From: Hyphomicrobiales bacterium
GTDB lineage: Bacteria > Pseudomonadota > Alphaproteobacteria > Rhizobiales > OSC116
NCBI GenBank assembly: GCA_002401855.1
Contig: NVUH01000015.1
Span: 10,231 to 74,230 of the forward strand
Direction: 5' to 3'
Length of the DNA stretch: 64,000 bases
Positions 7,875 through 39,992 of this stretch are shown here, in pieces. Made by a program: the position numbers and the translations under genes. Positions within the stretch are counted from its first letter, which is position 1. Each line of letters starts with the position of its first letter. Under the pieces are notes generated by a model. The model saw only the letters and a list, made by a program, of their open reading frames with translations. It did no database searches and was not told where the DNA came from.

Positions 7875-7900
7875 CTCATCGGCACTCCAGTGCCGATGAG
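7875..7900 (+). terminator. Intrinsic terminator-like hairpin
   Basis: ctcatcggcac-tcca-gtgccgatgag followed by a T-rich stretch. Confidence 0.65.
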
Positions 7901-7959
7901 TCCTGTTTTGTGCCTGATCGGTATAGTGCAATATATCATCACTCAATTTTCAACAGCTT

Positions 7960-8473
7960 ACGCCAAACCGCACCCCCAGAACGCCAATAATAAGTGGCAC
8001 AATGCCACCTCCCGTCAACAATAATGCCAACACCCCACCTGAATGTTAGCGGATAATAATCAACGAGTAGATTATTATGACAATCCCAAGAATAAACGCA
8101 GCGATACCCGTAATTTGAAAGTTTGGAATAATTGTCATAGCAAATTCACAAGCATGCCAGATATTTTCTGCATCAATTAGGTAGCCCCCAGCTACAATTG
8201 AAAATATAGCGCCATCAATAAAGCAAAACCAAATGGCAAGCCAGAGCGCGTTAATACAAATGCCCATGCAATTGAAACCACTAACACGGTAATCATTGAC
8301 ACATCACCCCCGCGGGAGATGACAACCAATGCCAACGCCATAATGCCTAAACTAGACACACTACGAATGAGAGAAAGTAAATTATTAAATGCAAAAAAAT
8401 TGAGCAAAAACAATGAAAAGCCAAACTTAAACGACATCAATTTTATTGCCTCCTCAGAAAGATGGATTTGCAT
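7960..8473 (-). pseudogene. Fragmented RbsC-type sugar ABC permease
   Basis: NLLSLIRSVSSLGIMALALVVISRGGDVS resembles the RbsC N-terminal motif; split over frames with stops; boundaries approximate. Confidence 0.5.
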
Positions 8474-8519
8474 ACTCAGAAATACCCTCTACTATCGTGA
8501 CAATGTGCGCAAAGCCGAG

Positions 8520-8594
8520 GGCGAAGGCGTAAAACGCGACAAACACGGTTATTATTGAATCACAGGCCGTGTAGATGACCAATTAAACGCATCA
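8520..8594 (+). pseudogene. Short fragment of acetyl-CoA synthetase
   Basis: GEGVKRDKHGYY*ITGRVDDQLN resembles the GDGA.RD.DGYYWITGRVDD..N motif, with Trp changed to TGA. Confidence 0.65.
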
Positions 8595-8739
8595 CCGCCT
8601 TTAAACAAGTTGCGTTAAAATGCGCCATGGTTATAGATACATTCAGCCTGTATTATTCAATAACTTAAAATCACTTAGCCCTTAGTATTAAATGTTTTTT
8701 AGGTTATTCTGGCTAATCTAGCGAAATTGAAAAGGGCTT

Positions 8740-9468
8740 ATGATGAAAAAAAATTTAGGGGCTACCCATGCATTGAGAGCGGTTTTCGCCATTAGAGATA
8801 AAATCTTAAGCGGTCAATATTCTCCTGGCGATAGGTTGGGCGAGGTGGCGATTGCCGAAGAACTTAATATTTCGCGCACTCCGGTGCGTGATGCCCTCTC
8901 GCACCTTGCGGGCGAAGGCATGCTAGAGCGCGCATCAACTGGCGGGTTTGTCATTCGTGATTTTGGTTTTGATGACATCGCCGACTCGATAGAATTACGC
9001 GGTATACTAGAAGGTACAGTAGCCAGACTGGCCGCCGAACGCGGTGCGTCCAAAGTAAGAATGAACAAGTTAGATAAAATCATATTGTCTATAGATGAGT
9101 GTTTCGACACCGAAAAATTCAAAGTAAACCGTACTTTATATGCCGAAAGAAATGCCGAATTTCATGAGGAGTTTGGCAAGCTATCAGGTAGCGAAGTGAT
9201 GGAGCGCGAACTATCCAGAGTGATGAAAATGCCCTTTGCTTCACCTTCGGCTTTCCTGTCGAACAAGAAAGAATCACGCGCATATTATTTAGAACTTTGC
9301 ACAGCCCAGCAACAGCACCGTGATATATTGTTGGCAATTGCCAAAGGCCAAGGCACCCGTGCAGAAGCCATCGCCCGCGCCCATGCCAATTTGGCCATGG
9401 TCAGTTTAGGCGAAACATTGGCAATTAACCCATTAAAATTCACCAGCCAAAACTCAAAATCCAAATGA
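8740..9468 (+). CDS. GntR-family regulator (FCD/VanR-like)
   Basis: ISRTPVRDAL wHTH, NAEFH...QQH FCD motif, PFASPSAF. Confidence 0.9.
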   Translation: MMKKNLGATHALRAVFAIRDKILSGQYSPGDRLGEVAIAEELNISRTPVRDALSHLAGEGMLERASTGGFVIRDFGFDDIADSIELRGILEGTVARLAAERGASKVRMNKLDKIILSIDECFDTEKFKVNRTLYAERNAEFHEEFGKLSGSEVMERELSRVMKMPFASPSAFLSNKKESRAYYLELCTAQQQHRDILLAIAKGQGTRAEAIARAHANLAMVSLGETLAINPLKFTSQNSKSK

Positions 9469-9487
9469 ACGGGCTTGCAGGTTTCAA

Positions 9488-10717
9488 TTAGCCCGCCATC
9501 AACGTTTTCACCTTTTCTCGAATGTCAAAATCGGCCAGCATCACCATTTCCTGTTCAATAACAACATTAGCCTCAAGCGCTTTACGCACCATGGCATAGG
9601 TTGCAGGGTCGTTTAAACTATCAACTGCAATAAGCTTTTGTTGGGCAAAGTAATAATGCGAAACCGCGCCTTCGCGTTTGCCATGTTTAACAATAACCGC
9701 GTCATACCCTCGGTTCAAACCAGCAATTTGCAATTTTATCTCAAATTGGTCAGACCAAAACCACGGTTTGGGGTTATATACAATCTCATTGCCCAAAATA
9801 TTGGCGGCGGCTATCGCACCTTGGTCATGGGCATTTTGCACCGATTCTAAACGTGTCGGCTGTTGATCGAACGGCAACGACACACAATCACCCGCCGCAT
9901 AAATATCGGCATGGCTGGTGCGGCAATATTCATCAACTATAATGCCGTTTAAAGTTTTTATACCGGCATTTTGCGCCAACTCGACATTAGCGGTAACTCC
10001 AATACCAACCACAATAAAGTCCAGCGCAATAACCTCACCACTCGACAACCGAACATCACAGGCAATGCCGTTTTCTTCAATAATCTTGAGCAATTGAGTG
10101 TTTTCTAAAATACGCACATTTTTTTGTTGATGTAAGCGGCGAAACTCATCTGATGTTTCGGCACAAGCCACACGCTTTAAAATACGATCAGCGGCCTCAA
10201 TAATGGTCACGTTAAGGCCTTTTTTGGCAGCTTCAGCAGCAGCCTCAAGGCCAATATACCCACCACCAATGACAATCAGGTTTTTATCTGCTTGCATATT
10301 ATCAATCAACCAATTGGCATCAGATAAATTTCGCATGGTTCTGACATTGGGCAAGTGCCCCCCAATATCGGCAGGTAAGCAGCGGGCAGTGGCACCAGTA
10401 GCCAGCAGCAATTTATCATAACTTTGCCAGCCGCCGCTCGCCAGTTGGAGCTGTTTTTTATCTGGGTCTATGCTCGTCACTTGGGCGTTGAGTTGCAAGC
10501 CAATACGCTGTTTTTCAAACCATTGTGCAGGCTTTAAACATAGCCGTTCTATCGGCATCACGCCCGCCATATAAGCTTTAGACAATGGTGGCCGTTGATA
10601 GGGTAGAAACCCTTCTTCAGAAATGATGACAATTTCCATGTCTGCATTCAACTGCCGCAATTTTGCAGCTGCGGCAATGGCTGCATGACTGCCGCCAATA
10701 ATTACAGTTTTAGTCAT
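9488..10717 (-). CDS. NAD(P)H:ferredoxin reductase (putidaredoxin-reductase type)
   Basis: PYQRPPLSK, GGGYIGLE, AAGDC, RLESVQNA, PWFWSDQ. Confidence 0.92.
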   Translation of the reverse strand: MTKTVIIGGSHAAIAAAAKLRQLNADMEIVIISEEGFLPYQRPPLSKAYMAGVMPIERLCLKPAQWFEKQRIGLQLNAQVTSIDPDKKQLQLASGGWQSYDKLLLATGATARCLPADIGGHLPNVRTMRNLSDANWLIDNMQADKNLIVIGGGYIGLEAAAEAAKKGLNVTIIEAADRILKRVACAETSDEFRRLHQQKNVRILENTQLLKIIEENGIACDVRLSSGEVIALDFIVVGIGVTANVELAQNAGIKTLNGIIVDEYCRTSHADIYAAGDCVSLPFDQQPTRLESVQNAHDQGAIAAANILGNEIVYNPKPWFWSDQFEIKLQIAGLNRGYDAVIVKHGKREGAVSHYYFAQQKLIAVDSLNDPATYAMVRKALEANVVIEQEMVMLADFDIREKVKTLMAG

Positions 10718-10742
10718 TTTACTTTCCGTATTCTGAATATGT

Positions 10743-11216
10743 TTATATTTTTAGAACCACATATTGATTTTCGGTTGAAACTTCAAAAACCTCTATTTTA
10801 TACGGCCCTTCGTCACGCGCCCCTTCGGCAGGCACATTAACACCACTCTCAACATCAGCTCTAGCAATGGCCTCAGCTTCACTACCGTCAGAAACACTCA
10901 CCTCAAAGCTTTTAACCCGAATGCGTTTCGGATCAATATATGATTGCCCCGTCTTTAGATCAAATTCCCATCCATGCCACGGGCAACGCACCATAGGCCG
11001 ATCACTTTGGGTGAAATATTCACCCGGCCCATGGGCATCTATAAAAGCTGCGATGCGACCATTGCACAAATTCGCGCCTTCATGCGGGCATTTACTAGTG
11101 ATGGCCGCAAACCGGTCACCCAAATTAAACACCGCAATATCTCGCCCCTCCACACTAATATGTTTGGCTTTACCTTTTGGTATTTCATGTATTTCACAAA
11201 CAACATGTTGCCCCAT
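10743..11216 (-). CDS. Rieske [2Fe-2S] ferredoxin
   Basis: CPH and CPWH motifs. Confidence 0.92.
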   Translation of the reverse strand: MGQHVVCEIHEIPKGKAKHISVEGRDIAVFNLGDRFAAITSKCPHEGANLCNGRIAAFIDAHGPGEYFTQSDRPMVRCPWHGWEFDLKTGQSYIDPKRIRVKSFEVSVSDGSEAEAIARADVESGVNVPAEGARDEGPYKIEVFEVSTENQYVVLKI

Positions 11217-11227
11217 ATCTCTCTCCT

Positions 11228-12352
11228 TTATGTAAGCCCGTAAACCGAAATGGCATTATTACGCAAAATGCCTTGTTTTAGCTCAGGCGCAATTGGCACC
11301 CGAAAGGCGCGGTCAGGGTGATCAAAATCCCAATGCGGGTAATCGGTTGAGAATAATAATTTATCATGCCCAATCCATTCAAGCAGTGGCGTCATGTGGC
11401 GCACGTTAGGCGGCTCTTCTACAGGTTGAGTGGTCAACCAAATATTGTTTTTCACATATTCAGAGGGCTTTTTCTTCACATGCGGCACTTCGTCTTTCAT
11501 CCGCTCCCACTCTCTGTCCATTCTCCACATAAGCGGCGCAAGCCACCCAAACCCACCTTCAACCACAATCAGTTTAAGCTTTGGAAAGCGCTCAAACACC
11601 CCTTCAAAAATCATCGAAACAATCACCGTTTGGGCGGGGTTTGCAAAACCGCAATGTTCTTCCATATAAAATGAGCCCCAACCGCCAGAACCATTGGCAT
11701 GAGTGCCATAACCTGCGGTATGCACCCCAATCGGCAGGCCTAAAGCTTCCGCCGCTTCATAAATTGGCCAATAGCGCATGCGGCCCATAGATTCTATCGA
11801 GCGCGGCACCATCGCAATTTGTACAAAACGCTCATCATTGGCCATACGTTCAATTTCAGCAACAGAGCTTATGGCGTCATCTTGCGCCACGGCAATGCCA
11901 CCTTTTAACCGTGTATCTTTGGACAACCATTTATCGATTTGCCAGTCATTCACCGCCGTACAAACTGCCGCACCAAGTTCTAGGTTAACCGCAGCTGGCC
12001 CAGCATTAAGCGCATGCAATAAACCAAATTCAATATTAAGCGGGTCAAGCAATTGCTCCTGCATAAATGACAAACTAGATGCTGGCGCACCGCCTTCTGG
12101 TGGGTAGCTATCTTGTCGCATACCATGGCCCATGCGCGGATAGGGCAATGCACCAACAAACGGGTTAGAGGTGCGAATGCCGTAATCTTTAACATGCTCA
12201 CGCCATCTTAACGGCATAAATTTACCCAATTCATCCTTAGTGGTGAAACCAGGGTGAATGTCACAACATACAATGCCTAATTTGCCTTCGGTCGGTGTGT
12301 ATGTGGCTGGCTTAAAACCAGTTTTAGGTTTTTCTAAGGTTGTTTCACTCAT
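11228..12352 (-). CDS. Amidohydrolase-fold protein, putative catalytic subunit of a dinuclear oxygenase (AibH2-like)
   Basis: CDIH, GVH, YMEEH, EGG, STDYPHWD; next to Rieske and reductase genes. Confidence 0.8.
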   Translation of the reverse strand: MSETTLEKPKTGFKPATYTPTEGKLGIVCCDIHPGFTTKDELGKFMPLRWREHVKDYGIRTSNPFVGALPYPRMGHGMRQDSYPPEGGAPASSLSFMQEQLLDPLNIEFGLLHALNAGPAAVNLELGAAVCTAVNDWQIDKWLSKDTRLKGGIAVAQDDAISSVAEIERMANDERFVQIAMVPRSIESMGRMRYWPIYEAAEALGLPIGVHTAGYGTHANGSGGWGSFYMEEHCGFANPAQTVIVSMIFEGVFERFPKLKLIVVEGGFGWLAPLMWRMDREWERMKDEVPHVKKKPSEYVKNNIWLTTQPVEEPPNVRHMTPLLEWIGHDKLLFSTDYPHWDFDHPDRAFRVPIAPELKQGILRNNAISVYGLT

Positions 12353-12353
12353 A

Positions 12354-13442
12354 TCACACCTTCAATCTGGGGTAAGTTGCCAATATATTATCAATGCAGA
12401 TTTTTTGCACATGTTGGGTCGGTATAGCCGCTGGCCATGCCCCCAAAACATCTTTATAATCATGCGGGTAGTCGCTAGAATAAAGCAACATATCTGCCGA
12501 CCCAATACAGTCGATAACCATTTGGCCATCGTCAGGGTTTGGCGGTGCATCAAATGGGGCGATGGTCATCCGAATGCTGCGTTCAAGAATTTTTTCAGGG
12601 CTCTCATTAATCCACGGCATTTCAACCCGCACACCGCGCCAATCTTTGGCAATCCGCCAACTCAAACCAAAATACCAAGCGACACCCGTTTCGGCCATCA
12701 CAATTTTCATGTCAGAAAACTCGGTCATCACGCCTTCGGTCAGCAAACTAGTCATTTGGCTGCCAAAACTCTGCACCCAACTAACCTGTTGTTCAACTAG
12801 ATATGATGGGTAACCCGAAGCTGTCGGTGAATGACGATAAGCACTAGCCGGGTGGATTGATAAGGCCATGCCAGCATCAGATGCGGCTTTATATATCGGC
12901 CAATACATACGTTTTCCCAACGGGTTTTCACCACCTGTAATGGCTAATATTTGCACAAAACGCGAGTCATTGGCATATTTCTGAATCTCCTCTACCGCTT
13001 TTTCTGGATATTGAAACGGCACCACCAATGAAGCGCGCAACCGCGGCTCTTTGTCCAACCATTCAGCCACAATCCATTTATTAATAGCTTGGCACATTGC
13101 GGTTGCCAAATAGGGGTCATAAATAGCCTGCGCGGCGTTAACAACGCTAACAATCGCTGCGCTCAATTGTAGCGGGTCAAGTAGGTTTTCTGCCAATTCC
13201 TTAGGGCTCTGTGCCCCGCCACCAACCGCGCCCGCACGGTTAAAATGTCGGCTCATATGCGGTGCAGATGTAAGTTCCATTTCATCAATGCCCCTATAAG
13301 GGAACATATCTTGCCAATAATCATCCAGAAAAGGCATTAAATCAGCTTGATTGGGGCTGCGAATATGCACATCGCAATCAATAGCGCCAATGCCAACAAT
13401 CGGGTTTTGATTGTCCATTATACTGTCTAATGTAGTTGTCAT
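12354..13442 (-). CDS. Amidohydrolase-fold protein, putative partner subunit (AibH1-like)
   Basis: DCDVH, SIHP, SSDYPHD; EEH replaced by EQQ; its stop is 1 nt from the paralog's start. Confidence 0.8.
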   Translation of the reverse strand: MTTTLDSIMDNQNPIVGIGAIDCDVHIRSPNQADLMPFLDDYWQDMFPYRGIDEMELTSAPHMSRHFNRAGAVGGGAQSPKELAENLLDPLQLSAAIVSVVNAAQAIYDPYLATAMCQAINKWIVAEWLDKEPRLRASLVVPFQYPEKAVEEIQKYANDSRFVQILAITGGENPLGKRMYWPIYKAASDAGMALSIHPASAYRHSPTASGYPSYLVEQQVSWVQSFGSQMTSLLTEGVMTEFSDMKIVMAETGVAWYFGLSWRIAKDWRGVRVEMPWINESPEKILERSIRMTIAPFDAPPNPDDGQMVIDCIGSADMLLYSSDYPHDYKDVLGAWPAAIPTQHVQKICIDNILATYPRLKV

Positions 13443-13470
13443 ATTATTTTCTCCACTGAGTAAAGTATGA

Positions 13471-15462
13471 TCATGAATTCATAAAAAATGCTGGCACGAA
13501 CGGTGTGTGCAAAATCTGGTCGTATAGGCCGAACAAAACCAAAGAAATGCCAGCGCAATAGATCAAAATAATCTTCCAATTAAATTTACCCCAAAAAACC
13601 ATATACACTGCTGCAAAGCCAACAATTGCGGCAAAAGTACCGATCCACGGGGTGAGCACCGCCATGACAAACATGGCAATAAATGTATTCACTTGCAGTT
13701 GGTTGGCTTTTACAAACTCAGCAAACGTACCACCAGCCGTCACGTCACCAGCTTTACGGGCAATGGCGAATTCACGCAATCGGCCCCAATCATCCACCAC
13801 CACCAACGCCACCATTATGATGCCAAAAATAGCCACGGTAATCGGGAACACTTTGGTCAACATGCTCCAGTCGACCGCCATCCAAATCGCCACTGCAAAC
13901 ACCACAAAAATGCCAATTGCCATGCCTGATGAAAGATACAAACTGTCTCTTGAAACTTCAGTATCCTCCACATCAAAGTCCGAATTTTTTTTGCGTGCCG
14001 CACGAATGGCAAAAAATAAGACACCCAATACAATCAAACCAAGCACAATAACCGTCGGGCGAGAAATCACCTCAGTGAATGTATAAGCCTGATAAGTGAT
14101 AGACAAAGCGTCTTCCATAATCGGGCCCAAAACAAAACCTAAAATTAATGGTGGCCTTGGCCAACCGCCAACCTTCATCATGTAGCCCAAAAGCCCAACG
14201 CCCAACAAAACACCCCACGTAAACATGTCAGGCGACCATAACCAAGAGCCCATAAAAATAAACATAATCACCGCAGGTACAATATAATTACCGTTAATAA
14301 ACGCCACTTTCGCCACCTGTTTGCCCCACAACATCAGCACCGCTGCGCCAATAATATTGGCAATAATAATGGTCCACACCATGCTAAACGTCACATCTAG
14401 ATTTTCGCCTAGCATGTTGCGGCCAGGAGTAAAACCATGAATGGTCAAGGCACCTAACAGAACTGCCATAGCGCCACTACCTGGAATGCCAAACGCCACA
14501 GTTGGTATGAGCGAGCCGCCCAAAACAGCATTATTGGCCGATTCTGGCGCAATCACACCACGCACATCACCTTTGCCAAATTCAGATTTGTCATCGGCAC
14601 TTTGCACCGCATGGCCATAAGCCAACCAGTCAACAACCGCAGAGCCAATGCCGGGCAACATGCCAATATATACACCTAATAATGAGCAGCGAATAACCAG
14701 CCATTTATGCTTTATAGCCAAACGAATGCCGTGCATAATACTGTCATTTTCAGCGCGCTTGTCGTCAATATGGGCGATAGCTGAACGCCGTGCGGCCAAA
14801 TCCATCATTTCAGGTATGCCAAACAGGCCAAGCACAATCGGCACCAACGGCAAACCATCAAGTAACGAAATATTACCAAACCAATAACGCGGCGAATCGC
14901 CAGCAATGGGGTAGCCAATTTGTGACAATAAAAGGCCAAGTGAAGCCGCTGCAATGCCTTTAGACACTGCATTGCCGCTCACCGCACCAACCATAATAAG
15001 CCCCAATAAAGCCAACAGAAAAAACTCAGGCGAACCAAACGCCAAAATAATAAAAATCGCAATGGGCAAAGATATGGCCATTGCCAAACCACCCAACACA
15101 CCACCAAACGCCGAGCAAGCAAACGCCGCACCAAATGCAGTTTGTGACAAGCCGCGCTTGGCCATGGCGTGGCCATCTATAACCGTAGCCTGCGAGGCTA
15201 TTGTGCCAGGAATGCCCAACATAACAGATGTGATAGTGTCACTGGTGGCAACCACCGCAAACATGCCAAGTAACATGGCCAAAGCCGCCGCTGGGTCCAT
15301 CCCAAAGGTAAACGGCAACAGCACCACCATGCCGGTCACGCCGCCTAAACCAGGCACAACACCTAGCCATAACCCAAGGGCGATTCCGCCCAATAGGTAA
15401 TAAATATTAGGAACAGAAATAATGAGTTGTAACCCATCGAAAAAAGTTTCGAGCATTTGCAA
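13471..15462 (-). CDS. tctA: Tripartite tricarboxylate transporter TctA with fused C-terminal TctB-like domain
   Basis: G..PGLGG, GIPG, GVIAPESANNA, PLILGFVLG; about 160 extra hydrophobic residues at the C-terminus. Confidence 0.85.
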   Translation of the reverse strand: MQMLETFFDGLQLIISVPNIYYLLGGIALGLWLGVVPGLGGVTGMVVLLPFTFGMDPAAALAMLLGMFAVVATSDTITSVMLGIPGTIASQATVIDGHAMAKRGLSQTAFGAAFACSAFGGVLGGLAMAISLPIAIFIILAFGSPEFFLLALLGLIMVGAVSGNAVSKGIAAASLGLLLSQIGYPIAGDSPRYWFGNISLLDGLPLVPIVLGLFGIPEMMDLAARRSAIAHIDDKRAENDSIMHGIRLAIKHKWLVIRCSLLGVYIGMLPGIGSAVVDWLAYGHAVQSADDKSEFGKGDVRGVIAPESANNAVLGGSLIPTVAFGIPGSGAMAVLLGALTIHGFTPGRNMLGENLDVTFSMVWTIIIANIIGAAVLMLWGKQVAKVAFINGNYIVPAVIMFIFMGSWLWSPDMFTWGVLLGVGLLGYMMKVGGWPRPPLILGFVLGPIMEDALSITYQAYTFTEVISRPTVIVLGLIVLGVLFFAIRAARKKNSDFDVEDTEVSRDSLYLSSGMAIGIFVVFAVAIWMAVDWSMLTKVFPITVAIFGIIMVALVVVDDWGRLREFAIARKAGDVTAGGTFAEFVKANQLQVNTFIAMFVMAVLTPWIGTFAAIVGFAAVYMVFWGKFNWKIILIYCAGISLVLFGLYDQILHTPFVPAFFMNS

Positions 15463-15485
15463 TTAGCCTAAATATACTGATAAGT

Positions 15486-15529
15486 TAAAAAAACCGCCGA
15501 TACCCCGATATAGAAATTGGGCATCGGCG
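15486..15529 (-). terminator. Intrinsic terminator-like hairpin after tctC
   Basis: cgccgat...atcggcg stem followed by a U tract on the minus strand. Confidence 0.55.
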
Positions 15530-15545
15530 CTAAGTCGTACTAGGA

Positions 15546-16649
15546 CTAACCTTTTAGACGGCCGATATAACCACGAAGGATATCTTTCATTTCCTCAGAA
15601 GTGTTCTGTACGTCATTGACTTTATCAATAATGCCTTGGCCTCTAGTTATCAGTGGAGCCGTACCAAATAATTTAGTGGCTTCCGCAATATAACCAGGGT
15701 CAGTAACCGCAGCTTCAAAACCATCACGTAATGTTTTAAGCGTATCAGCAGGCGTACCTTCTGGCGCAAAAATCAACCAAACAACAGGCTCATGATTTGT
15801 GCCGTTAAATTTAATCAAATCCCAAGCAGGGCCAGATGGCTCTTTGCCAGTTGCATTGCGATAAAATTCATCAAATGATACAGCAACATCGCCATAAGCA
15901 TCGGTTTTAATAATGCCAGTACCCGCTTCATTTGGATGTCCCAAATAGAATAATGGCAACACTTCGCCATCTTTCACCACGCCGTCTTTGAGCTGGGTGC
16001 GGAAATAGCTGGCAGTTGACATACCGGCATCAATTTCACCACGCAATAGCGCGGCATTAATTTTGGTATCACCAAAAAAACCAGATACAAATGACCATTC
16101 CATGCCCAACATATCAAACGCCGCAGCAAATGACATAGATGGCATAGATTTCACGGTGTAACCACCAAATTTAATTTTGCCTAATTTCACAAAATCTTCA
16201 GCATTTTTAACACCAGAACCAGTGTCTGTACGCACGCTAATCATTTGGCTTGTGCCACCAACCCCGCCAATAAGGCCGAGTTTTTGAAACTCAATTTGCA
16301 AAGCAGGCTCATCTAGAATACGGGTAGAGCCACTCCATGCCACATAACCCAAGGTTGTGCCGTCAGCTTTTGAATTCATAGCGGCGTGTATGCCTTTAGT
16401 CAAAGCCCCACCAGGTACAGATTGCACAACCATAGTCGGCGAACCCTCAATGGCTTTTGACCAATAATTGGCTAATATTTGCGACCCCAGGCCAGTCGAA
16501 CCACCTGGTGACGCATTATGGATAATGGTAATGGTTTTACCTGCCATAGATTCAGCCGAAGCTGATAATGGTTGCAATGCCATTAAAGCGGCAAAGCCCA
16601 CCCCTGCAAAAACCCGCGCTGTTTTGGCGAATAAATTCATATGTTTCAT
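15546..16649 (-). CDS. Divergent TctC/Bug-type periplasmic binding protein
   Basis: Signal peptide, SPGGST, VPGG, ALLRGEIDA, P.GTP motifs; upstream of tctA. Confidence 0.8.
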   Translation of the reverse strand: MKHMNLFAKTARVFAGVGFAALMALQPLSASAESMAGKTITIIHNASPGGSTGLGSQILANYWSKAIEGSPTMVVQSVPGGALTKGIHAAMNSKADGTTLGYVAWSGSTRILDEPALQIEFQKLGLIGGVGGTSQMISVRTDTGSGVKNAEDFVKLGKIKFGGYTVKSMPSMSFAAAFDMLGMEWSFVSGFFGDTKINAALLRGEIDAGMSTASYFRTQLKDGVVKDGEVLPLFYLGHPNEAGTGIIKTDAYGDVAVSFDEFYRNATGKEPSGPAWDLIKFNGTNHEPVVWLIFAPEGTPADTLKTLRDGFEAAVTDPGYIAEATKLFGTAPLITRGQGIIDKVNDVQNTSEEMKDILRGYIGRLKG

Positions 16650-16668
16650 ATAATTCCTCCCTTTAGAA

Positions 16669-17523
16669 TTGTATACAAAGTTATTTTATTCATTTACGCG
16701 ATATGGTAGTTTTTCATTGATGCAAATCAAAACGTAAGAAAATATCCCAATTTCCCTTGTGAAAATGCCAAATTTCGATAATTATACAGGCATATCCCCC
16801 TTTTTTTGAAATTACTTAGCTTCATAGATTGGCTAAACATTATCATATCACGCATAATGTATACAATATGTTGTCATATATGGCAAGTGATAACTAGACC
16901 AATTATAATTTACATATATAGCATTGATATATAAGGTAAAAAAAATTAATGTGTTTACAGATATATAACAATATGGGCAGCATATTGACCCAATACACCT
17001 ATCAAAATTGCGTATATAATGAATATTTTTAAAGAAAATAATATTTTTCGCCAAAATATATAATTTATGCTTCAATTAGCAATTGCTTAAGGTAGGTTTA
17101 CCACCAACCCATCCAATTCATCAGATGCTATTATTTGGCAGGAAAGCCGACTAGATTCAAGCCTTTCATCCTCAGCAATGTCAAGCATATCGTCTTCAAA
17201 TGGGCTGGGTTCGCCCACCGCTTCGCGCCATTCTTCAGTTATATATATATGGCATGTGGCACAAGACAAATTACCGCCGCACTCACCTACAATGTTTGGC
17301 ACTTGGTTTAAAATGGCGGCCTCCATTAAATTTGTACCATTTTCCACATCAGCAGCAATTTCATCACTTTCGGATATTTTCCAAGTTATTTTCATAATTC
17401 CACCTCCAAATTCAAGCCTATCCCCATTTAACACGATATTAAGTGTATACAATAATATTGATATTCGCATATTTAATGGGTGTCAAGTAGGATATTTGCG
17501 TATAAATACCTTATATGTATACA
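16669..17523. promoter_or_regulatory. Four TGTATACA palindromes (candidate GntR operators)
   Basis: Copies at 16670, 16858, 17444 and 17516, all upstream of tctC or the ferredoxin gene. Confidence 0.6.
17087..17395 (-). CDS. 2Fe-2S ferredoxin, putidaredoxin/adrenodoxin type
   Basis: CGGNLSCATCH and SRLSCQ; RBS ggaggt before ATG 17395. Confidence 0.92.
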   Translation of the reverse strand: MKITWKISESDEIAADVENGTNLMEAAILNQVPNIVGECGGNLSCATCHIYITEEWREAVGEPSPFEDDMLDIAEDERLESSRLSCQIIASDELDGLVVNLP

Positions 17524-18094
17524 TAGAACATCATGATAAAAATGGCTAAGCCCTATCTGGTTATTCCGAAAAACGCCTTTCTTCAGAGGCATTGCATGAC
17601 AAAGTTGAAAAATCATAAATGTCTGATTTGTTCCATAGCCAGATGCATGCGACATAACGCCTCTACGACAAATTTTACCTGTATTCCATGTGCCTTTTGT
17701 TCTAAAATTATTGTGTAAATTTAAAGGGTGAAAATGATGGAAATATTTCGATAGTAGCCATATCTATAATAGCTTATCAAATGCAGCAGAGACCATTATT
17801 ATCAGTGAAGCATGACTACGCATTCCCCCCAACAAGTTGGAGCTCAAAAGGTAGAATTACATAACCATAATTATGGATGAAGGCATTATGTGTATACGCA
17901 AAGTTAAAACCATTGACGTCCCTACAAACGCCATGCAAAGCTTTCACCCACATGGTTATCATTTAGTGATGTTTAAACTCGACCCAGTATTATTTGCTAT
18001 TGATAAAATACTTGAAGTTGAACTTCTTTTTGACAATGCCTAAAACAAAATAATTTGGCTCGCAAACACTTAACCTCACATTGGGAATAAAATA

Positions 18095-18523
18095 TTGAAT
18101 TTCAATAGAAATTTAAAATTTAAAATATTTAACACACGGTTTCACCGTGCATCCTATGTTGTGGTTATATTTATACTATTGCAAACATTTCTACCGTTTT
18201 GGGTTTCAGCGAATACCAGCAGTGAATCCCATATTGTAAATTCAGAAAACATTATAATCATTTGCTCTGGTAATGAACTAGTATATTTAGCGCTAAATAA
18301 AAATGGTGACTTTTCAAAAATTGAAGCACCTGGGGAAGCTCCCACCCAATTACAAATCATTCATTGCGATTCCTGTGTTTTCTCCGATGCCACATTTATA
18401 CCAATTGACAAACCGTTCAATTATTTACCACCCTTAGATGCACATAGGCACCCTATTCTGTCAGGAAAATCGCCTTTAAACTTACACAAATACCGCCCAC
18501 CACTTCGCGCGCCTCCTGCCTAA
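18095..18523 (+). CDS. DUF2946/CruR-like protein (CxxC and C-terminal RAPP)
   Basis: N-terminal hydrophobic segment, IICSG, HCDSC, Pro-rich tail ending LRAPPA. Confidence 0.7.
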   Translation: MNFNRNLKFKIFNTRFHRASYVVVIFILLQTFLPFWVSANTSSESHIVNSENIIIICSGNELVYLALNKNGDFSKIEAPGEAPTQLQIIHCDSCVFSDATFIPIDKPFNYLPPLDAHRHPILSGKSPLNLHKYRPPLRAPPA

Positions 18524-18680
18524 TTTAAAACACCCCAAATCATTTATCTCTATCAAAAGCCATTAAAAGGTCTCCGATACAAGATGTTGTCGAACAGTTA
18601 TTCGCATCTTATTTTTGATAAATTTCATCATAAAATTTCTAACTAACAAAGGTTGCGTGTTCTCGCGCAAGACCAAAATT

Positions 18681-19514: not shown

Positions 19515-19628
19515 AACAAGGACAAAATATTGCTTATAAAAAACTTAATTCAAATTAACTTCTAATCTTGCCTAGCTGAAGTCCCCCATTCAAGCATGAA
19601 GTCTTATAAGTAGAACTTATTATGACAC

Positions 19629-19735
19629 CCCCCTCCCAAACAGAAAAAAAGTCCCACAATGTGAGGCTGCGTTTATTGTAATGATTGTAGTTTATTGTTA
19701 TCTGTTTGGGAGGGGGCTCACAACCTTCATAACTT
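19629..19735. repeat. 16-bp inverted repeat overlapping an att-like scar
   Basis: ccccctcccaaacaga (19629-19644) / tctgtttgggaggggg (19701-19716); internal and flanking sequence resembles 49021-49087. Confidence 0.6.
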
Positions 19736-20583: not shown

Positions 20584-21435
20584 ATGGATTACAATGACAA
20601 TCTTTTCTCTGAGAAAACGCGTTTAGTCGCCAACGAAATAGATGTTAAATATGGCGATAATAAAATTATCGACTGTCTAAATATTGAAATTCCAACGGCC
20701 AAAATAACAATATTAATTGGCGCCAACGGCTGCGGCAAATCTACCCTTCTTAAATCTATGGCGCGGGTGCTCACACCAAGTTCAGGCTCTGTCTGGTTAG
20801 ATGGTAAAGATATACATAAATCCAATACCAAACAGGTTGCAAAGAAACTTGGTTTACTGCCGCAAGGCCCTGTCGCGCCAGAAGGCCTAACTGTTAAAGA
20901 ACTCGTTAGCCAAGGCCGCTTTCCTCATCAAAGTTTACTGCGCCAGTGGAGCTCAAAAGATGAAACAGCTGTGAACAATGCAATGGCCCTTGCAAAAGTT
21001 GATATTTTTGCAGATTTACAAGTTGATGATCTATCTGGTGGCCAGCGCCAACGCTGTTGGGTCGCTATGGCAATGGCACAAGAAACAGATATCATTTTAT
21101 TGGATGAGCCAACAACCTTTTTGGATTTGAAGATACAAGTCGAGTTAATGGATCTCTTATCAACTTTAGCGCATGAAAACGGGCGGACATTGGTGGTGGT
21201 TTTACACGAGTTAAATCTTGCCGCAGCATATGCAGATAATTTAATCATGATAAAAGATGGTAAAATTGTTTTTAAAGGCGAACCAAACAAAATATTTACA
21301 AGCGATAATCTGAAATTTGTATTTGATTTAAATGCAGATATTCTTATAGACCCATCAACAAATCGGCATATTTGCATTCCAAAATACAAAAATGCAACAA
21401 GTTTCTCGCAAAGCACAGAAGGTGCTTCAACATGA
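20584..21435 (+). CDS. Fe-siderophore ABC transporter ATPase (FhuC/FecE-like)
   Basis: GANGCGKST, LSGGQRQR, LLDEPTT, VLHELN. Confidence 0.93.
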   Translation: MDYNDNLFSEKTRLVANEIDVKYGDNKIIDCLNIEIPTAKITILIGANGCGKSTLLKSMARVLTPSSGSVWLDGKDIHKSNTKQVAKKLGLLPQGPVAPEGLTVKELVSQGRFPHQSLLRQWSSKDETAVNNAMALAKVDIFADLQVDDLSGGQRQRCWVAMAMAQETDIILLDEPTTFLDLKIQVELMDLLSTLAHENGRTLVVVLHELNLAAAYADNLIMIKDGKIVFKGEPNKIFTSDNLKFVFDLNADILIDPSTNRHICIPKYKNATSFSQSTEGAST

Positions 21436-22463
21436 GTAAAGTTACCTTAGTTTCGCCTAAAGAAAAAAATAATTTTCGCAGTACTTTAAGCCTTGGCATT
21501 TTATTTGCTTTTGGGCTTTGCATAATTATGTTTGTTCTACATATTTCCATCGGAGCAAAACCATTAAGTTATTTAACAGTCATTAATTCTATTATTCATT
21601 TTGATATCCGTAATTTTGATCACGTCATTATACTAAAAGTAAGGCTACCAAGAGCAATCATTGCATTAACTGTAGGCGCAAGTTTAAGTGTTGCAGGTGC
21701 CATCATGCAAGGCGTCACTCGTAACCCACTTGCCTCTCCAAGCATTCTGGGTTTGCTAACAGGTGCATCATTTGCAATCGTAATTTCCTATGGCATGTTT
21801 GGGGTTTTCACCCCCTATTACACACCATGGATTGCAGCTTTAGGCGCGCTTCTCACTGCAATATTGGTACTCACTGTCGCTTCATTGGCTCCAGGTGGGG
21901 CAAGCCCGCTAAATCTAACACTGTCGGGGGCCGCCATTAGCGCTTTTTTAGGTGCAATCATTACAATTTTCAATCTATTGGATAGTGATAATTTCGATGA
22001 TTTGCGAGAATGGCTCACAGGTTCACTTGCTGGCAATAGTCTAGAAGTATTTTATATTATAGTTCCTTGGATCATCATCGCTATGGTAGCCGCCATTATT
22101 TTGTCTCGAAAAATTACAATTTTAGGCATGGGTGATGACGTTGCCAAAGGGTTGGGCGTAAAAACAACAGGCCTAAAAATACAATTATTAATCATTGTTG
22201 TCATGCTTACCGCAAGCTCAGTAGCCCTCGCAGGTCCCATGGGTTTTATCGGCTTAGTCATACCTCATATTGCACGCATCGTCGTTGGTTCTGACTACCG
22301 CTGGATAATCCCATATTCAGCCCTATTCGGCGCAGCATACCTTGTTGGGGTCGATATTTTAGCTCGGGTTATCATCGCCCCTCAAGAAATTTCAACCGGC
22401 ATAATCACCGCTTTATTTGGCGGTCCTCTATTTATTTATTTAATTAAAACGAGGGCTAGATGA
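21432..22463 (+). CDS. FecCD-family permease
   Basis: RLPR, QGVTRNPLASP, FIGLVIPH; ATGA overlap with the ATPase stop. Confidence 0.92.
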   Translation: MSKVTLVSPKEKNNFRSTLSLGILFAFGLCIIMFVLHISIGAKPLSYLTVINSIIHFDIRNFDHVIILKVRLPRAIIALTVGASLSVAGAIMQGVTRNPLASPSILGLLTGASFAIVISYGMFGVFTPYYTPWIAALGALLTAILVLTVASLAPGGASPLNLTLSGAAISAFLGAIITIFNLLDSDNFDDLREWLTGSLAGNSLEVFYIIVPWIIIAMVAAIILSRKITILGMGDDVAKGLGVKTTGLKIQLLIIVVMLTASSVALAGPMGFIGLVIPHIARIVVGSDYRWIIPYSALFGAAYLVGVDILARVIIAPQEISTGIITALFGGPLFIYLIKTRAR

Positions 22464-23518
22464 TGTCAAACACGCATTTCACTCTACGATTATTGAATGA
22501 AAGCATAGCCCTTAAGCTACCCAAATTCGCCCTAATAATTATCCTAATCATATGTATCATGATTGTTTTTATGATCGTTTGGAGTTTAAATATTGGCAGT
22601 TTCAACCTGTCTTTCCAAAGTGTTTACGACACTTTGAAAGGCACAGAAACAGATAAAGCTGCAAATAATGTCGTGTGGCTATTTAGGTTCCCCCGTACAT
22701 TAGCCGCCATATTGGTTGGAATAATGATGGCACTATCTGGCGCTGCTCTGCAAAACGTCACTCGTAACGGCTTGGCAGACCCTTCATTAATTGGCATTAG
22801 CCAAGGTGCGGCACTCGCAGTTGTCGCAAGCATAATTGTATTTCCTGAAATAGATATCAATTTAAGGCCATGGCTGGCTTTGGCAGGCTCTCTTATTGTT
22901 GCTGCTACAATCCAATGGTTGAGTTTTGATGATAAAGCCAGCAACTCGCTGAAACTTATTTTATTCGGCATAGGCGTATCGGCGTTTTTAAGTTCAATCA
23001 CCACCGCTATGCTAACTTATGGTGATATTTACAACGCATCATCTGCATTGGCTTGGTTGGCTGGCAGCATAAACGCAACCAACTGGTTCGACGTTAAGCT
23101 ACTCTCAATTGCCGTGCTTATATTGGTGCCACTCTTACTTATTTTAAGTCGGTTGATGGCAACCTTGCGCTTAGGCGAGATATCTGCCATCTCACTTGGT
23201 GTTCCCATAAAATTTGTTAAATATGCACTCATAAGCTTAGCTGTTGCCTTAGCTGCAATCGCCACGTCTGTTGTCGGGCCTCTTGGCTTTGTGGGCTTAG
23301 TTGCGCCTCACCTTGCCAGACTTTTAACACGTAGCAATGTTGCAATTCATTTAATTTTAACCGCATTAATAGGCGGCCTGTTGGTCTTAGTTGCAGACTT
23401 TGCAGGCAGAGCTTTGTTTGCTCCACTACAAATACCAGCAGGTATTGTCACTGAAATTATTGGCGTGCCTTTTCTTATATTTTTGCTTTTAAGCCAAAGG
23501 CGTAAATTAAATAAATGA
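22460..23518 (+). CDS. FecCD-family permease
   Basis: RFPR, RNGLADP, FVGLVAPH. Confidence 0.92.
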   Translation: MMSNTHFTLRLLNESIALKLPKFALIIILIICIMIVFMIVWSLNIGSFNLSFQSVYDTLKGTETDKAANNVVWLFRFPRTLAAILVGIMMALSGAALQNVTRNGLADPSLIGISQGAALAVVASIIVFPEIDINLRPWLALAGSLIVAATIQWLSFDDKASNSLKLILFGIGVSAFLSSITTAMLTYGDIYNASSALAWLAGSINATNWFDVKLLSIAVLILVPLLLILSRLMATLRLGEISAISLGVPIKFVKYALISLAVALAAIATSVVGPLGFVGLVAPHLARLLTRSNVAIHLILTALIGGLLVLVADFAGRALFAPLQIPAGIVTEIIGVPFLIFLLLSQRRKLNK

Positions 23519-23554
23519 CAAAATACTTTACAACTCAAACAAAATGGAAATGAG

Positions 23555-24526
23555 ATGAAAACTTCATTAATAAAAACAGCAATTGCGGTCGCGCTCACAA
23601 TTATAGTTTCTTCAGCACACGCTGTCGAAACACGTATATATTCAGATGATTTAGACAGAAAAGTCGAAATCCCCGTTCAAGCACAACGGATTGTTGCACT
23701 ACACGATGTTTTGCTAACCGTTCCTTTGATAGAGCTAGGTGTAATGCCAGTGGGTTCTATCGGGCGTTTGTCAAAAGATGGCAAACCATTCATAAGAAGT
23801 GGCATGGTGTTAACTGGCTATGATTTTGAAAATAGCGGTATTGACTTCATTGGTACTTTTGATTTGGATATTGAAAAAGTAGCTGCTCTTAAACCAGACT
23901 TAATCATTGCAACACCTAGATACGAAAAAACTTTAGCACAATTTGAAGCGCTCGCCCCTACAGTTGTTGTCAACTATAACACCCGCACGCCATTAGAAAT
24001 ATTTGAAGCGGTTGCCGACATCACAAACACTCAAGATAAATTGGCTGTATTAGAAAGACGCTACCAAAGCCAATTAGATGGCATTAGACGCATTATTGAT
24101 ACAAAAAGCATAGTCGTCAATGCGATGATGCCTAAAAAGGGTAACATAAACATTCGCTATTCAGACTTCACACTAGGTAAAGTATTACGTGATGCGGGCT
24201 TTAGGTTTCCAAAAGCTGTAGATGATCTAAAACCAGGTGGACGTGCAGACTTTAGCGTTGAAAGACTGGCTGAATTAGATGCTGATTATGTATTTGCAAC
24301 CTATAGAACAGATAAAAAACACACTCCACAAATGATAGTTGAAGAGTTTGAAGCCGTTCTTCCTAATTTCTGCGATCACCTAACAGCCTGCAAAAACAAC
24401 AATCTAATCGTCATTCCTCGTGAATTGAGCTTAAGCGTTTCATACACAGCATTGGGCATCACAGCCTACACCGTGTTGACTCATATAAGTGGCAACCCAT
24501 TTGCAGCTAAGCTTGAGAAGAAATAA
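23555..24526 (+). CDS. Fe-siderophore substrate-binding protein, paralog 1
   Basis: Signal peptide, DDLDRKVEIP, EKVAALKPDLII. Confidence 0.88.
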   Translation: MKTSLIKTAIAVALTIIVSSAHAVETRIYSDDLDRKVEIPVQAQRIVALHDVLLTVPLIELGVMPVGSIGRLSKDGKPFIRSGMVLTGYDFENSGIDFIGTFDLDIEKVAALKPDLIIATPRYEKTLAQFEALAPTVVVNYNTRTPLEIFEAVADITNTQDKLAVLERRYQSQLDGIRRIIDTKSIVVNAMMPKKGNINIRYSDFTLGKVLRDAGFRFPKAVDDLKPGGRADFSVERLAELDADYVFATYRTDKKHTPQMIVEEFEAVLPNFCDHLTACKNNNLIVIPRELSLSVSYTALGITAYTVLTHISGNPFAAKLEKK

Positions 24527-24533
24527 AACTTAA

Positions 24534-25439
24534 ATGTCCAATCTCCCCACACCATTTAGAAGTTTTACAGATGATTTAGGTCGCGTTGTGCAAATTCCAA
24601 CCACACCAAGACGCATCGCGTCACTGCACGATACTGTACTTACATTATCTCTCATCGAGTTAGGCGTATTTCCCGTTGGCAGTCACGGCAGGATATCAAA
24701 GGAAGGGGTACCGTTCATCAGAGCAAGTAAGGTATTAAACGGTTATGATTTTGACAATTGCGACATAAAATTTTTAGGCCGTAGCCCAATCGACATTGAT
24801 AAACTTATCTCTGTAAAGCCTGACCTTATTATTTCAACACTTTGGCAAAAACTACCCATTGAGCAGCTAGAAGCCATTGCTCCCACATTAATTTTAGATT
24901 TTGAAAAACACACGAGAGGAAAATTAGCAGAGATTATAGCTGATGCAACAAATACACAAAGCAGCCTAACCATTTTGAAACGTAGGTTTGAAGCACAAAT
25001 AGAACGTATTAAAGAAATTATAGATACGCAACAAATTAGTGTGAACATCATTCAACCACATAACGGAAAAATATTAGTTTTTAATTCATATTTTTCCATG
25101 GGTGAGGTTTTGCGTGATGCTGGTTTTAAATTTCCTGATGCAGTGAATGATATTCCATTGGGTGATTGCAAACTATTTGAGCCAGATGAACTTGATCAAA
25201 TAGAAGCTGATTTTGTATTTGCAACTTATAGAACTGATAAAAAACACACACCGCAATATTTGATGGATGAGTTTATTGCGATCAAAAGTGATTTTGTCGA
25301 AAGTTTTGCACCCTGTCGACAAGGCCGGCTATTATTCATCCCTAGAGAAGAAGCCAGCGGCAACTCATTTGCTGCTTTGGGAATTTGCGCCGCAACAATC
25401 TTAAACCACGTAGCGGGGCACCCTTACCCGATTATATGA
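24534..25439 (+). CDS. Fe-siderophore substrate-binding protein, paralog 2 (no signal peptide)
   Basis: DDLGRVVQIP, KPDLII; N-terminus MSNLPTPFRSFT has no hydrophobic core. Confidence 0.82.
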   Translation: MSNLPTPFRSFTDDLGRVVQIPTTPRRIASLHDTVLTLSLIELGVFPVGSHGRISKEGVPFIRASKVLNGYDFDNCDIKFLGRSPIDIDKLISVKPDLIISTLWQKLPIEQLEAIAPTLILDFEKHTRGKLAEIIADATNTQSSLTILKRRFEAQIERIKEIIDTQQISVNIIQPHNGKILVFNSYFSMGEVLRDAGFKFPDAVNDIPLGDCKLFEPDELDQIEADFVFATYRTDKKHTPQYLMDEFIAIKSDFVESFAPCRQGRLLFIPREEASGNSFAALGICAATILNHVAGHPYPII

Positions 25440-25497
25440 AATTCCGAAAATCCCCCACATAACCAAAGGCCCCACATAACCAAGAAAGAGAAGAGAA

Positions 25498-26460: not shown

Positions 26461-26516
26461 TATTAAAACCCCCACATTATTTACCCTCACAAAACCTAAA
26501 TAAAAAGAGAAAAGTA

Positions 26517-36359: not shown

Positions 36360-36411
36360 TCTATCGCCCAAAAACGGCGATAGAATGAAGCTTTTTGAGC
36401 GTATGATAAAA

Positions 36412-39929: not shown

Positions 39930-39941
39930 TTAACACTAATC

Positions 39942-39972: not shown

Positions 39973-39992
39973 AAAAAATAGAGATTAAATTT

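Follow-up and report, generated by a model that had tools for sequence, protein, structure and literature searches.

Genes of the PF04909 amidohydrolase family are routinely labelled 'amidohydrolase'. A stretch of 64,000 nucleotides from a Hyphomicrobiales bacterium (assembly GCA_002401855.1, contig NVUH01000015.1, positions 10,231 to 74,230; hereafter the window) raises the question of what two such genes, here called A and B, do in one gene run with a Rieske ferredoxin and a ferredoxin reductase. Judged from its sequence, the A-B pair is almost certainly an oxygenase, and a concrete counter-case to the label. We propose, with a probability of about 0.55, that the cluster at positions 8740-17395 encodes an AibH1H2-type member of the amidohydrolase-related dinuclear oxygenases (AROs), together with its uptake system and electron chain, and that it acts on a lignin-derived aromatic carboxylate carrying a methyl or methoxy group. 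What the sequence itself shows is the fold, the ligand set with its motifs, the partner genes, the operator sites and the co-occurrence. We infer from these which metals are bound, how the electrons travel, that A and B form a complex, that the GntR represses, and what the substrate class and the reaction are.

A check of open reading frames (ORFs) and Pfam families across the window returned the gene order and strands that an earlier, sequence-only reading had described: a minus-strand run fdx-tctC-tctA/B-A-B-Rieske-reductase with a convergent GntR gene. Counted from the probable start M26, fdx spans 17087-17395, and 17395 is also the end coordinate given in that reading. From the reductase gene to the gene for the periplasmic binding protein the run is tight, with intergenic gaps of 1-83 bp. 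A spacer of 437 bp then separates the binding-protein gene from fdx.

Among solved structures, B is most similar to AibH2 (PDB 6m1w_B, E 9e-87) and A to AibH1 (PDB 6m2i_A, E 1.5e-61). B also matches SfbO (8sm6) and three further candidate AROs (8sm7-8sm9) at E 5.7e-66 to 4.7e-60. Its matches to LigW (1.6e-19), PtmU3 (2.5e-16), DitZ (1e-10) and ACMSD (1.6e-8) are far weaker than that to AibH2, with which it shares about 41% identity (145 of 353 aligned columns, hand count). All six metal ligands of AibH2 are kept in B as D31, H33, H211, E265, D337 and H340, as mapped by hand to the numbering in the available text of Hibi 2021. D31 and H33 align with D25 and H27 of AibH2, and H211 and E265 with its H211 and E265. 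The same mapping shows that the second-sphere residue D342 is kept, and mutation of its counterpart is reported to impair AibH2 (Powell 2023, PMC10401708). The ligands, W341 and D342 are invariant in an alignment of 36 homologues.

According to the available text of Liu 2026 (PMC13154177), an ARO is recognized by an N-terminal D-x-H and a C-terminal D-x-P-H-x-[D/E] preceded by about 200 or more residues, and both motifs are reported there to be missing in the characterised hydrolases and decarboxylases with this fold. B contains both, as D31-I32-H33 and D337-Y-P-H340-W-D342-F. It also has the PF04909 fold and the remaining site-1 ligands, H211 (the His after strand 5) and the bridging Glu E265, which completes the set of marks that can be tested in a sequence. 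The profile of the non-redox enzymes LigW, ACMSD, LigI and LigJ, which have a site with one metal or none, different N-terminal motifs and no D-x-P-H-x-[D/E], does not describe B. The sequence-only reading had named missing dinuclear ligands and clustering with LigW/ACMSD decarboxylases as observations that would speak against an oxygenase, and neither was found. It had also listed DxH, H, EEH, E and DYPH in B, all of which are present, EEH as E231-E232-H233; A, as it stated, has E217-Q-Q219 at this position. The EEH motif is real, but it is not a metal-ligand motif of AibH2 in the available text of Hibi 2021, and in our model it is located at the A/B interface.

A keeps the mononuclear ligand set of AibH1, namely D24, H26, H197, E251 and D324, with H327 (hand mapping to the published ligands as far as the available text gives them). 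Among 36 homologues D24, H26, D324 and H327 are invariant, and H197 and E251 are kept in at least 90%. Its C-terminal motif reads D-Y-P-H327-D-Y, and that of most A homologues D-Y-P-H-W-Q. Since no D or E stands two residues beyond the C-terminal His, A lacks the mark of a dinuclear site.

Modeling of the A/B complex from one alignment per subunit gave an ipSAE of 0.92 in three runs, and the best of 3 controls reached 0.00. At least 93% of contacts are common to the runs, with a partner pLDDT of 91 or more. Of 80 solved complexes 58 reach the mark applied to such models, as do 2 of 110 mismatched pairs; that A/B passes it may reflect likeness to the solved AibH1H2 and not binding. The modeled interface covers residues 218-246 of B, including the E231-E232-H233 loop, and residues 341-342. 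Because of these positions, A would be expected to contact loops beside the active site of B.

A putative electron chain is encoded with A-B. The Rieske protein carries C43-x-H45 and C78-x-x-H81, and the gene for the NAD(P)H reductase is 25 bp from the Rieske gene. The reductase matches the NCBIfam HcaD-like model at E 2.7e-90, below its equivalog cut-off. It is an FAD-only protein of the HcaD/BphA4-like kind, a class different from that of AibF. The fdx product has cysteines C64, C70, C73 and C111 (ORF numbering) in the arrangement C-x5-C-x2-C-x37-C, presumably the adrenodoxin/putidaredoxin type of spacing. The fdx gene is kept with the cluster in a second genome of the host genus, G004 (71% over 102 residues), and is absent from the loci L001 and L096 and from the Neorhizobium loci. 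At L001:11986-14564, 3' of the Rieske gene, there are an ORF resembling UGSC-family (seleno)proteins (52 bits, cut-off 125) and a thioredoxin-reductase-like flavoprotein, and no HcaD-like reductase. This flavoprotein set may be an alternative reductase module.

In B, the γ1 residue I32 is hydrophobic, the γ4 and γ5 residues W341 and F343 are aromatic, and the Rieske gene begins 11 bp downstream. Because of these three positions, the Rieske neighbor and E-values of 9e-87 to 4.7e-60 against its best matches, B is predicted to fall with the low-potential, manganese-using ARO class; the published prediction also uses a hydrophilic γ2 at the close of beta-strand 2, which leaves this metal call incomplete. 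B shares E231-x-H233 with AibH2, and has H233 and F236 where SfbO has the sulfonate-binding R232 and R235. An SfbO-like sulfonate substrate is unlikely, since B lacks both arginines. Y280, also named for SfbO, did not agree with the residue count in the printed alignment and was left out of this comparison.

The E-values of both subunits, the full ligand set, the ARO motifs, and a Rieske protein and reductase in the same operon support the earlier reading of an AibH1H2-like oxygenase. On this sequence evidence, the cluster very likely encodes an ARO monooxygenase.

The sequence-only reading had further taken the tripartite tricarboxylate transporter (TTT) genes to indicate a carboxylate substrate. 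A TTT-type system is present but divergent, with TctA matched at 392.6 bits. The TctB-like C-terminal part of the permease scores 26.5 bits (cut-off 29.1), and the binding protein scores 20.9 bits against Pfam TctC (cut-off 27). Among solved structures the binding protein is closest to BugE (2dvz, E 4e-6), and its structural neighbors in the Atlas are TctC/Bug clusters with TM scores of 0.73-0.87. Counterparts of the TctA protein are 71% identical in L001, 87% in G004 and 55% in L096. A carboxylate is thus a reasonable but unproven expectation. The window contains a second, canonical TTT (TctA 505 aa, TctC 323 aa) at 55405-63193, beside PrpF, an 864-aa aconitase and a protein of the phosphoenolpyruvate-mutase/isocitrate-lyase family, a gene set that we take to be methylcitrate-cycle-like. 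It contrasts with the fused 663-aa TctA/TctB-like protein and divergent binding protein of the hydroxylase cluster.

The substrate class is suggested by the regulator. The window GntR matches Atu1419 (PDB 6z74) at E 9.8e-61, compared to 1.4e-13 for the next best, and the two are about 50% identical (hand count). By hand mapping to the available description of Atu1419, its DNA-reading E34, R45, T46 and R49 are kept as E35, R46, T47 and R50, and its Zn site N137, H141, H192 and H214 as N138, H142, H193 and H215. The best NCBIfam match of the window GntR, a phosphonate-associated regulator, reached 84 bits (cut-off 271.5) and was superseded by the Atu1419 match. In Agrobacterium fabrum, as far as the available text of PMC7797058 describes it, Atu1419 represses atu1418-1419 and atu1420, of which atu1420 is the LigM-type demethylase and atu1418 is MetF-like, and has N5,N10-methylene-tetrahydrofolate (methylene-THF) as its effector. 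Its operator was mapped experimentally as 5'-ATGTATACAT-3', in two copies 190 bp apart, and degenerate 8/10 copies were bound too.

The core of this operator, TGTATACA, occurs in the window four times, and all four sites are located at 16670-17523 (1.07 expected window-wide). Four of 100 shuffles of the window reached four sites anywhere. Compared to the published operator ATGTATACAT, the boxes comprise one perfect 10-mer (17515-17524), one 9/10 and two 8/10 copies, and the pair on the side of the binding-protein gene (16670, 16858) matches at 8/10 and 9/10. The spacing of this pair, 188 bp, is close to the roughly 190 bp reported for Atu1419. Unlike the system in A. fabrum, where the reported target is a folate-dependent demethylase, the predicted target here is an ARO operon with a TTT and a ferredoxin. 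Alignment of the fdx to binding-protein spacers of the host (G000) and G004 showed two TGTATACA palindromes conserved amid diverged AT-rich DNA. The same four boxes are found in G004 (3581, 3781; 3025, 3098), again 4 of 4 sites, a count reached in 0 of 200 shuffles. In L001, 3 of 3 GTATAC sites fall in the spacer between the GntR and binding-protein genes (0 of 100 shuffles). A general scan of the window showed no enrichment of promoter-like sites (26, 29.0 expected) or terminator-like sites (13, 13.2 expected).

The same boxes occur at lignin-type genes elsewhere in the 3.08-Mb host genome, which contains 19 TGTATACA sites. Pairs within 300 bp are found only in the window cluster (two pairs) and at C15:10919/11021. 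The latter pair lies in the divergent promoter between an alpha/beta-hydrolase-LigA-LigB operon and GntR2, a GntR/FCD gene whose product is 58% identical to the window GntR. After GntR2 come one more box and then genes for a LigM equivalog (680 bits, with a cut-off of 580), a TRAP transporter and an aldehyde dehydrogenase. Further boxes are located near a LigM/DesA-like gene on contig C15 and, on C50, between ligI (4d8l, E 5.3e-106) and a LigB-family gene. In all, at least 9 of the 19 sites belong to the window cluster or to lig clusters. The box-GntR-ligM layout is also seen in L096, G004, one Neorhizobium genome and the genome from which L001 comes, with three boxes at the ligM locus of G004 and 3 of 3 sites between GntR and ligM in L096. 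The cluster is probably part of a methoxy-aromatic/one-carbon-folate regulon. Ten more single TGTATACA boxes stand outside the hydroxylase and lig clusters, several of them intergenic with AT-rich flanks; their positions include C37:90295, C45:76586, C42:44093, C6:107741, C40:16619 and C1:117227. Genes beside them could be further members of the regulon.

Co-occurrence with ligM points in the same direction. A and B lie side by side in all 80 related genome loci and in all 89 further loci, a Rieske homologue is nearby in 68 (hand count) and 78 of these, respectively, and every named locus with homologues is alphaproteobacterial. A tree of 174 B-type sequences with four A-type sequences as outgroup (FastTree, LG+gamma; L081-L084, L086, L094, L095 and loci above L175 omitted as duplicates or unrelated fetches) placed B in a 10-member clade with a support of 0.998. 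Its nearest relatives are from G004 (84% identity), the Rhodobacterales isolate L001 (68%), Neorhizobium (58-61%) and two metagenome contigs (55-60%). Besides the host, the TTT genes are common within the clade only to L001, G004 and partly L096. A LigM equivalog adjoins the A-B locus in three clade loci, L096, L002 and L059. These LigM proteins share 74-91% identity (631-682 bits; 5x1i, E 2.7e-179), and in L096 genes for a LigB-class dioxygenase and a PcaD-like hydrolase are found as well. All five clade genomes tested (G000, G004, G341, G342 and G344) have LigM. Among 301 genomes of the host's class it exceeds the cut-off in 7, it is absent from G343 (Bradyrhizobium), the single genome tested outside the clade, and none of five class genomes with a distant B homologue (at most 48% identity) is among its holders. 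Within the genus of the host, G000 and G004 have the cluster and ligM together, and neither was found in G001, G002, G003, G005 and G007 (91-99% complete).

In the Neorhizobium loci L002 (8837-13751), L004 and L059, the genes are arranged as a tandem A-B-A'-B'-Rieske, flanked by genes for PotD/Fbp-type binding proteins and a LysR gene. The ligM gene there is the last gene of a divergent ABC-transporter operon. In the first 80 loci, neighborhood clustering found no family beyond A, B and Rieske common to more than 21 loci; it used a greedy ORF caller, which picked antisense ORFs in high-GC loci. The contexts are mixed, with LIV-type ABC transporters, ABC exporters, alcohol dehydrogenase, GNAT, HlyD, LysR, CinA, acyl-CoA dehydrogenase and amidase genes.

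Based on these observations, we propose the following mechanism. The TTT-type system, composed of the TctC-like binding protein and the fused TctA/TctB-like permease, would import a carboxylate. Electrons would pass from NAD(P)H through the FAD reductase and the Rieske ferredoxin, possibly also via the extra [2Fe-2S] ferredoxin, to the dinuclear site of B, which would be held in a heteromer with the non-catalytic, mononuclear A. The reduced Mn/Fe (or Fe2) site of B would activate O2 and hydroxylate a C-H bond of the substrate. The Atu1419-family GntR/FCD repressor would bind the ATGTATACAT-type boxes flanking fdx and upstream of the binding-protein gene, and the same boxes with the paralogous repressor would control ligM and ligAB elsewhere in the genome. 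The ligM product is predicted to be a tetrahydrofolate-dependent vanillate/3-O-methylgallate O-demethylase. Because boxes and a paralogous repressor are shared with ligM/ligAB, and because of the co-occurrence, the substrate would be a lignin-derived aromatic carboxylate with a methyl or methoxy group, whose place in the pathway is before vanillate, 3-O-methylgallate or protocatechuate.

Hydroxylation of a methoxy methyl group would give an unstable hemiacetal, leading to O-demethylation and formaldehyde, which may feed the methylene-THF pool sensed by the Atu1419 regulator family. SfbO, in which C-H hydroxylation leads to dealkylation, would be a precedent by analogy for such a demethylase-type outcome. 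That the reaction is specifically an aryl O-demethylation is a tentative suggestion, for which we would give clearly less than even odds. About as tentative is the complete picture, in which aryl O-demethylation or aryl-methyl hydroxylation of lignin-derived aromatic acids would be carried out by a so far undescribed kind of enzyme. This would be a heteromeric Mn/Fe oxygenase of the amidohydrolase fold that uses O2 and no folate, is served by a dedicated TTT importer and is switched on by a methylene-THF-sensing repressor of the Atu1419 type. Such an enzyme might serve as an overflow or alternative route once the folate-dependent LigM/DesA demethylases load the one-carbon-folate pool, and formaldehyde entering the inducer pool would create a feed-forward loop.

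Several observations weigh against an aromatic substrate or against details of this mechanism, in addition to the limits on the metal call and on the complex model given above. Neither a downstream catabolic gene nor an adjoining ligM accompanies the window cluster, the rest of the 64-kb window has no aromatic-catabolic gene, and none is found near the L001 cluster. The window GntR is a paralogue of the ligM-linked GntR2, and may respond to a different effector. Since the effector reported in the available text on Atu1419 is a folate, the regulon link would equally fit any methyl donor that feeds one-carbon folate, for example an N-methyl compound. The co-occurrence with ligM is an association and not proof, as G000 and G004 are close kin and only about four lineages are represented. 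In the clade loci L003 and L005 no Rieske gene adjoins A-B; instead, the gene of a GMC alcohol oxidoreductase stands immediately upstream of the pair, which suggests that a stable alcohol product would fit better there than O-demethylation. The Neorhizobium loci contain PotD/Fbp-type ABC transporters, which are atypical for aromatic acids, and more distant family members neighbor LIV-type amino-acid ABC transporters, amidases and alcohol dehydrogenases.

An alternative is that an ARO of the same type acts on a small non-aromatic carboxylate, for instance an amino acid of the alpha,alpha-dialkyl or N-methyl kind or another polar acid like these, and that the ligM link reflects only shared sensing of one-carbon folate or paralogy of the regulators. 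AibH1H2, the sole characterised heteromeric relative in the available literature, acts on 2-aminoisobutyrate (Aib), and B has the E231-x-H233 pair of AibH2. Other clades adjoin genes for LIV-type amino-acid and PotD-type ABC transporters, amidase and GNAT proteins. The best solved match of the binding protein, BugE, is glutamate-bound. Atu1419 is described as sensing methylene-THF, not aromatics, and formaldehyde from an N-demethylation would feed the same pool. The informative neighbors within the clade itself point the other way, being ligM, a LigB-type dioxygenase and a PcaD-like hydrolase, and LigM, rare in the class, is present in every clade genome tested. The only other close box pair in the host is at ligAB-ligM, and the window cluster has no amino-acid catabolic gene. 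We regard a non-aromatic substrate as less likely.

A closer relationship, in which the cluster is a true orthologue of the Rhodococcus AibH1H2GF system and hydroxylates Aib to alpha-methyl-D-serine, is very improbable. The cluster resembles AibH1H2-AibG-AibF of Rhodococcus wratislaviensis (PMC7782822, PMC10401708; 6M1W, 8FUL-8FUO) in several respects: both subunits have their best solved matches there, an H1/H2-like pair precedes a Rieske gene in the order known from the aib genes, the AibH2 ligands (D, H, H, E, D, H and the second-sphere D) recur unchanged in B while A has the mononuclear set only, an NADH-linked reductase is in the operon, and a heteromer is predicted here by modeling. However, B is only about 41% identical to AibH2, and genes of the aibD1, aibE, aibC, aibA and aibT types are absent in and beside the cluster. 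According to the available text, AibF is an FMN/[2Fe-2S] protein and the aib genes are accompanied by an amino-acid permease and a LysR regulator; here, the reductase is FAD-only and HcaD-like, a stand-alone [2Fe-2S] ferredoxin is added, and uptake and regulation are provided by a TTT and an Atu1419-type GntR. The context also differs, being lignin-aromatic here and amino-acid catabolism there.

Least probable of all is that A and B are ordinary non-redox PF04909 enzymes, such as a hydrolase, hydratase or decarboxylase of the LigI/LigJ/LigW/ACMSD kind, with unrelated redox neighbors: automatic annotation would label both amidohydrolases, and the host does have seven other PF04909 genes (at least one LigI) and lig-type pathways, but B carries D-x-H and D-x-P-H-x-D, which the available published text assigns to AROs, its matches to LigW and ACMSD are far weaker than that to AibH2, and the constant A-B adjacency, the frequent Rieske homologue and the tight gene spacing argue against chance neighbors.

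The kind of enzyme is already known, and the regulatory and genomic context is new. AibH1H2GF was described in 2021, and the available text of that report (Hibi 2021, PMC7782822) already mentions similar gene sets in other genomes. The strategy of searching Rieske neighbors and the name ARO date from 2024 (Liu 2024, PMC10811679), and a motif census of about 17,000 ARO sequences, with advice to re-annotate, appeared in 2026 (Liu 2026, PMC13154177). Because the family and the Rieske-neighbor logic are published, we place the novelty of the enzyme itself lower. In the literature searched, we found no ARO in lignin-aromatic catabolism, although the published candidate lists (about 3,300 and about 17,000) may include this clade, no TTT-linked ARO operon, and no Atu1419-type regulation of an oxygenase. 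In the available text of Liu 2026, lignin appears only in references to LigI/LigJ, and a review retrieved in the search mentions only decarboxylases.

Among known oxygenases of the fold, SfbO and the other homomeric low-potential AROs (PMC10811679, PMC13154177; 8SM6-8SM9) share with B the PF04909 fold, both motifs, the γ1/γ4/γ5 type and an adjacent Rieske gene. Unlike A-B, the structures 8SM6-8SM9 each contain one type of chain, and an AibH1-like partner is missing from them. The high-potential diiron AROs PtmU3 and DitZ belong to the same superfamily and have the same type of ligand set. In contrast to B, they are described in the available text as having a hydrophilic γ1, generally no Rieske partner, and diterpenoid substrates.

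If the O-demethylase reading is correct, the cluster would share its physiological role with LigM and DesA, the folate-dependent aryl O-demethylases. VanAB and LigX are Rieske-type multicomponent aryl O-demethylases, and their layout of NADH reductase, ferredoxin and oxygenase resembles the one found here. Known aryl O-demethylases are Rieske/mononuclear-iron or GcvT-like folate enzymes, whereas a TIM-barrel dinuclear Mn/Fe site is predicted for B. Only one heteromeric AibH1H2-type ARO has a known substrate, and a second would help to explain the silent H1 subunit and the evolution of substrate range. If the methoxy-aromatic link is true, lignin-aromatic catabolism would have a third demethylation/hydroxylation chemistry, distinct in mechanism, beside the folate-dependent and Rieske/P450 types, with relevance to lignin valorisation and to selective C-H oxidation biocatalysis with a Mn/Fe cofactor. 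The candidate boxes described here also extend the experimentally defined Atu1419 operator to a distant host, and their predicted target operon is new for the regulator family.

Table 1. Genes and candidate operator boxes of the oxygenase cluster, in window coordinates
Feature	Position	Strand	Remarks
GntR/FCD repressor, Atu1419 (VanR-group) family	8740..9468	+	convergent with the operon; Pfam GntR E 8.1e-17, FCD E 1.4e-12
NAD(P)H:ferredoxin reductase, FAD, HcaD/BphA4-like	9488..10717	-	Pyr_redox_2 E 7.9e-67, Reductase_C E 8e-22
Small Rieske [2Fe-2S] ferredoxin, AibG/SfbR-like	10743..11216	-	Rieske Pfam E 7.9e-16
B, predicted catalytic AibH2-like ARO subunit	11228..12352	-	PF04909 E 1.1e-49, 170.1 bits
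A, AibH1-like partner subunit, predicted non-catalytic	12354..13442	-	amidohydrolase fold E 1.6e-27
TctA with C-terminal TctB-like extension, 663 aa	13471..15462	-	TctA PF01970 392.6 bits
Divergent TctC/Bug-type periplasmic binding protein, N-terminal hydrophobic leader	15546..16649	-	Pfam, PDB and Atlas matches
Candidate operator boxes TGTATACA, two	16670-16677, 16858-16865	.	upstream of the binding-protein gene, 188 bp apart
[2Fe-2S] ferredoxin (fdx)	17087..17395	-	Fer2 E 1.1e-7; ORF 17087-17470, probable start M26
Candidate operator boxes TGTATACA, two	17444-17451, 17516-17523	.	upstream of the fdx gene

The edges of the cluster (7935-8740 and 17524-18615) contain small ORFs that match no family, including one of 93 aa (8192-8473) and one of 142 aa (18095-18523). 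Synteny with G007, a genome of the genus, ends at about 7935, just past a strong terminator-like hairpin at 7875-7900. A clean insertion site is not definable, as the right flank falls on other contigs in the relatives. The cluster is patchily distributed, being found in 2 of 8 genomes of the genus and in 0 of 33 other families of the order. Its GC content (0.44-0.47) exceeds that of the immediate flanks (0.36-0.39), yet the whole genome is at 0.44; because of this value GC was dropped as a sign of horizontal transfer, and the patchy distribution alone remains. Contigs of close relatives were found in the plastisphere runs X2, X4 and X5 and in the wood run X3 (28, 26, 30 and 29 of 30 bins, respectively, at 88-99% likeness). 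They indicate the presence of close relatives only, and run X1, a possible source sample, was left out of the count.

Elsewhere in the host genome, outside the window, a lignin-type gene set is distributed over C15:8900-23000, C24:5500-9600, C50:35900-41000 and C22:11300-14900. It comprises the LigM equivalog, the LigM/DesA-like gene, five LigB-family dioxygenases, LigA, LigI and seven further PF04909 genes. A chemoreceptor gene stands beside ligM together with the TRAP transporter and aldehyde dehydrogenase genes. No VanA_C domain, which marks VanA-type Rieske demethylases, was found in the host genome.

The remaining window contains at least three import systems of the FecCD/BtuC type (iron-siderophore, heme or B12 ABC transporters) at 20584-28352 and 34501-41090. 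Two genes resembling S-adenosylmethionine-dependent methyltransferases and an AraC regulator gene lie between them. A GMC oxidoreductase, a TRAP transporter (DctP, DctM) and a divergent LysR regulator are encoded at 49272-55262. This GMC gene is 32 kb from the cluster, and that of the Neorhizobium locus L005 is directly upstream of A-B. Finally, a repeat of about 100 bp is found at 19628-19735 and 49013-49098. Both copies match G007:C59:175-281 at 71-75% identity, which points to a short repeat dispersed in the genus.

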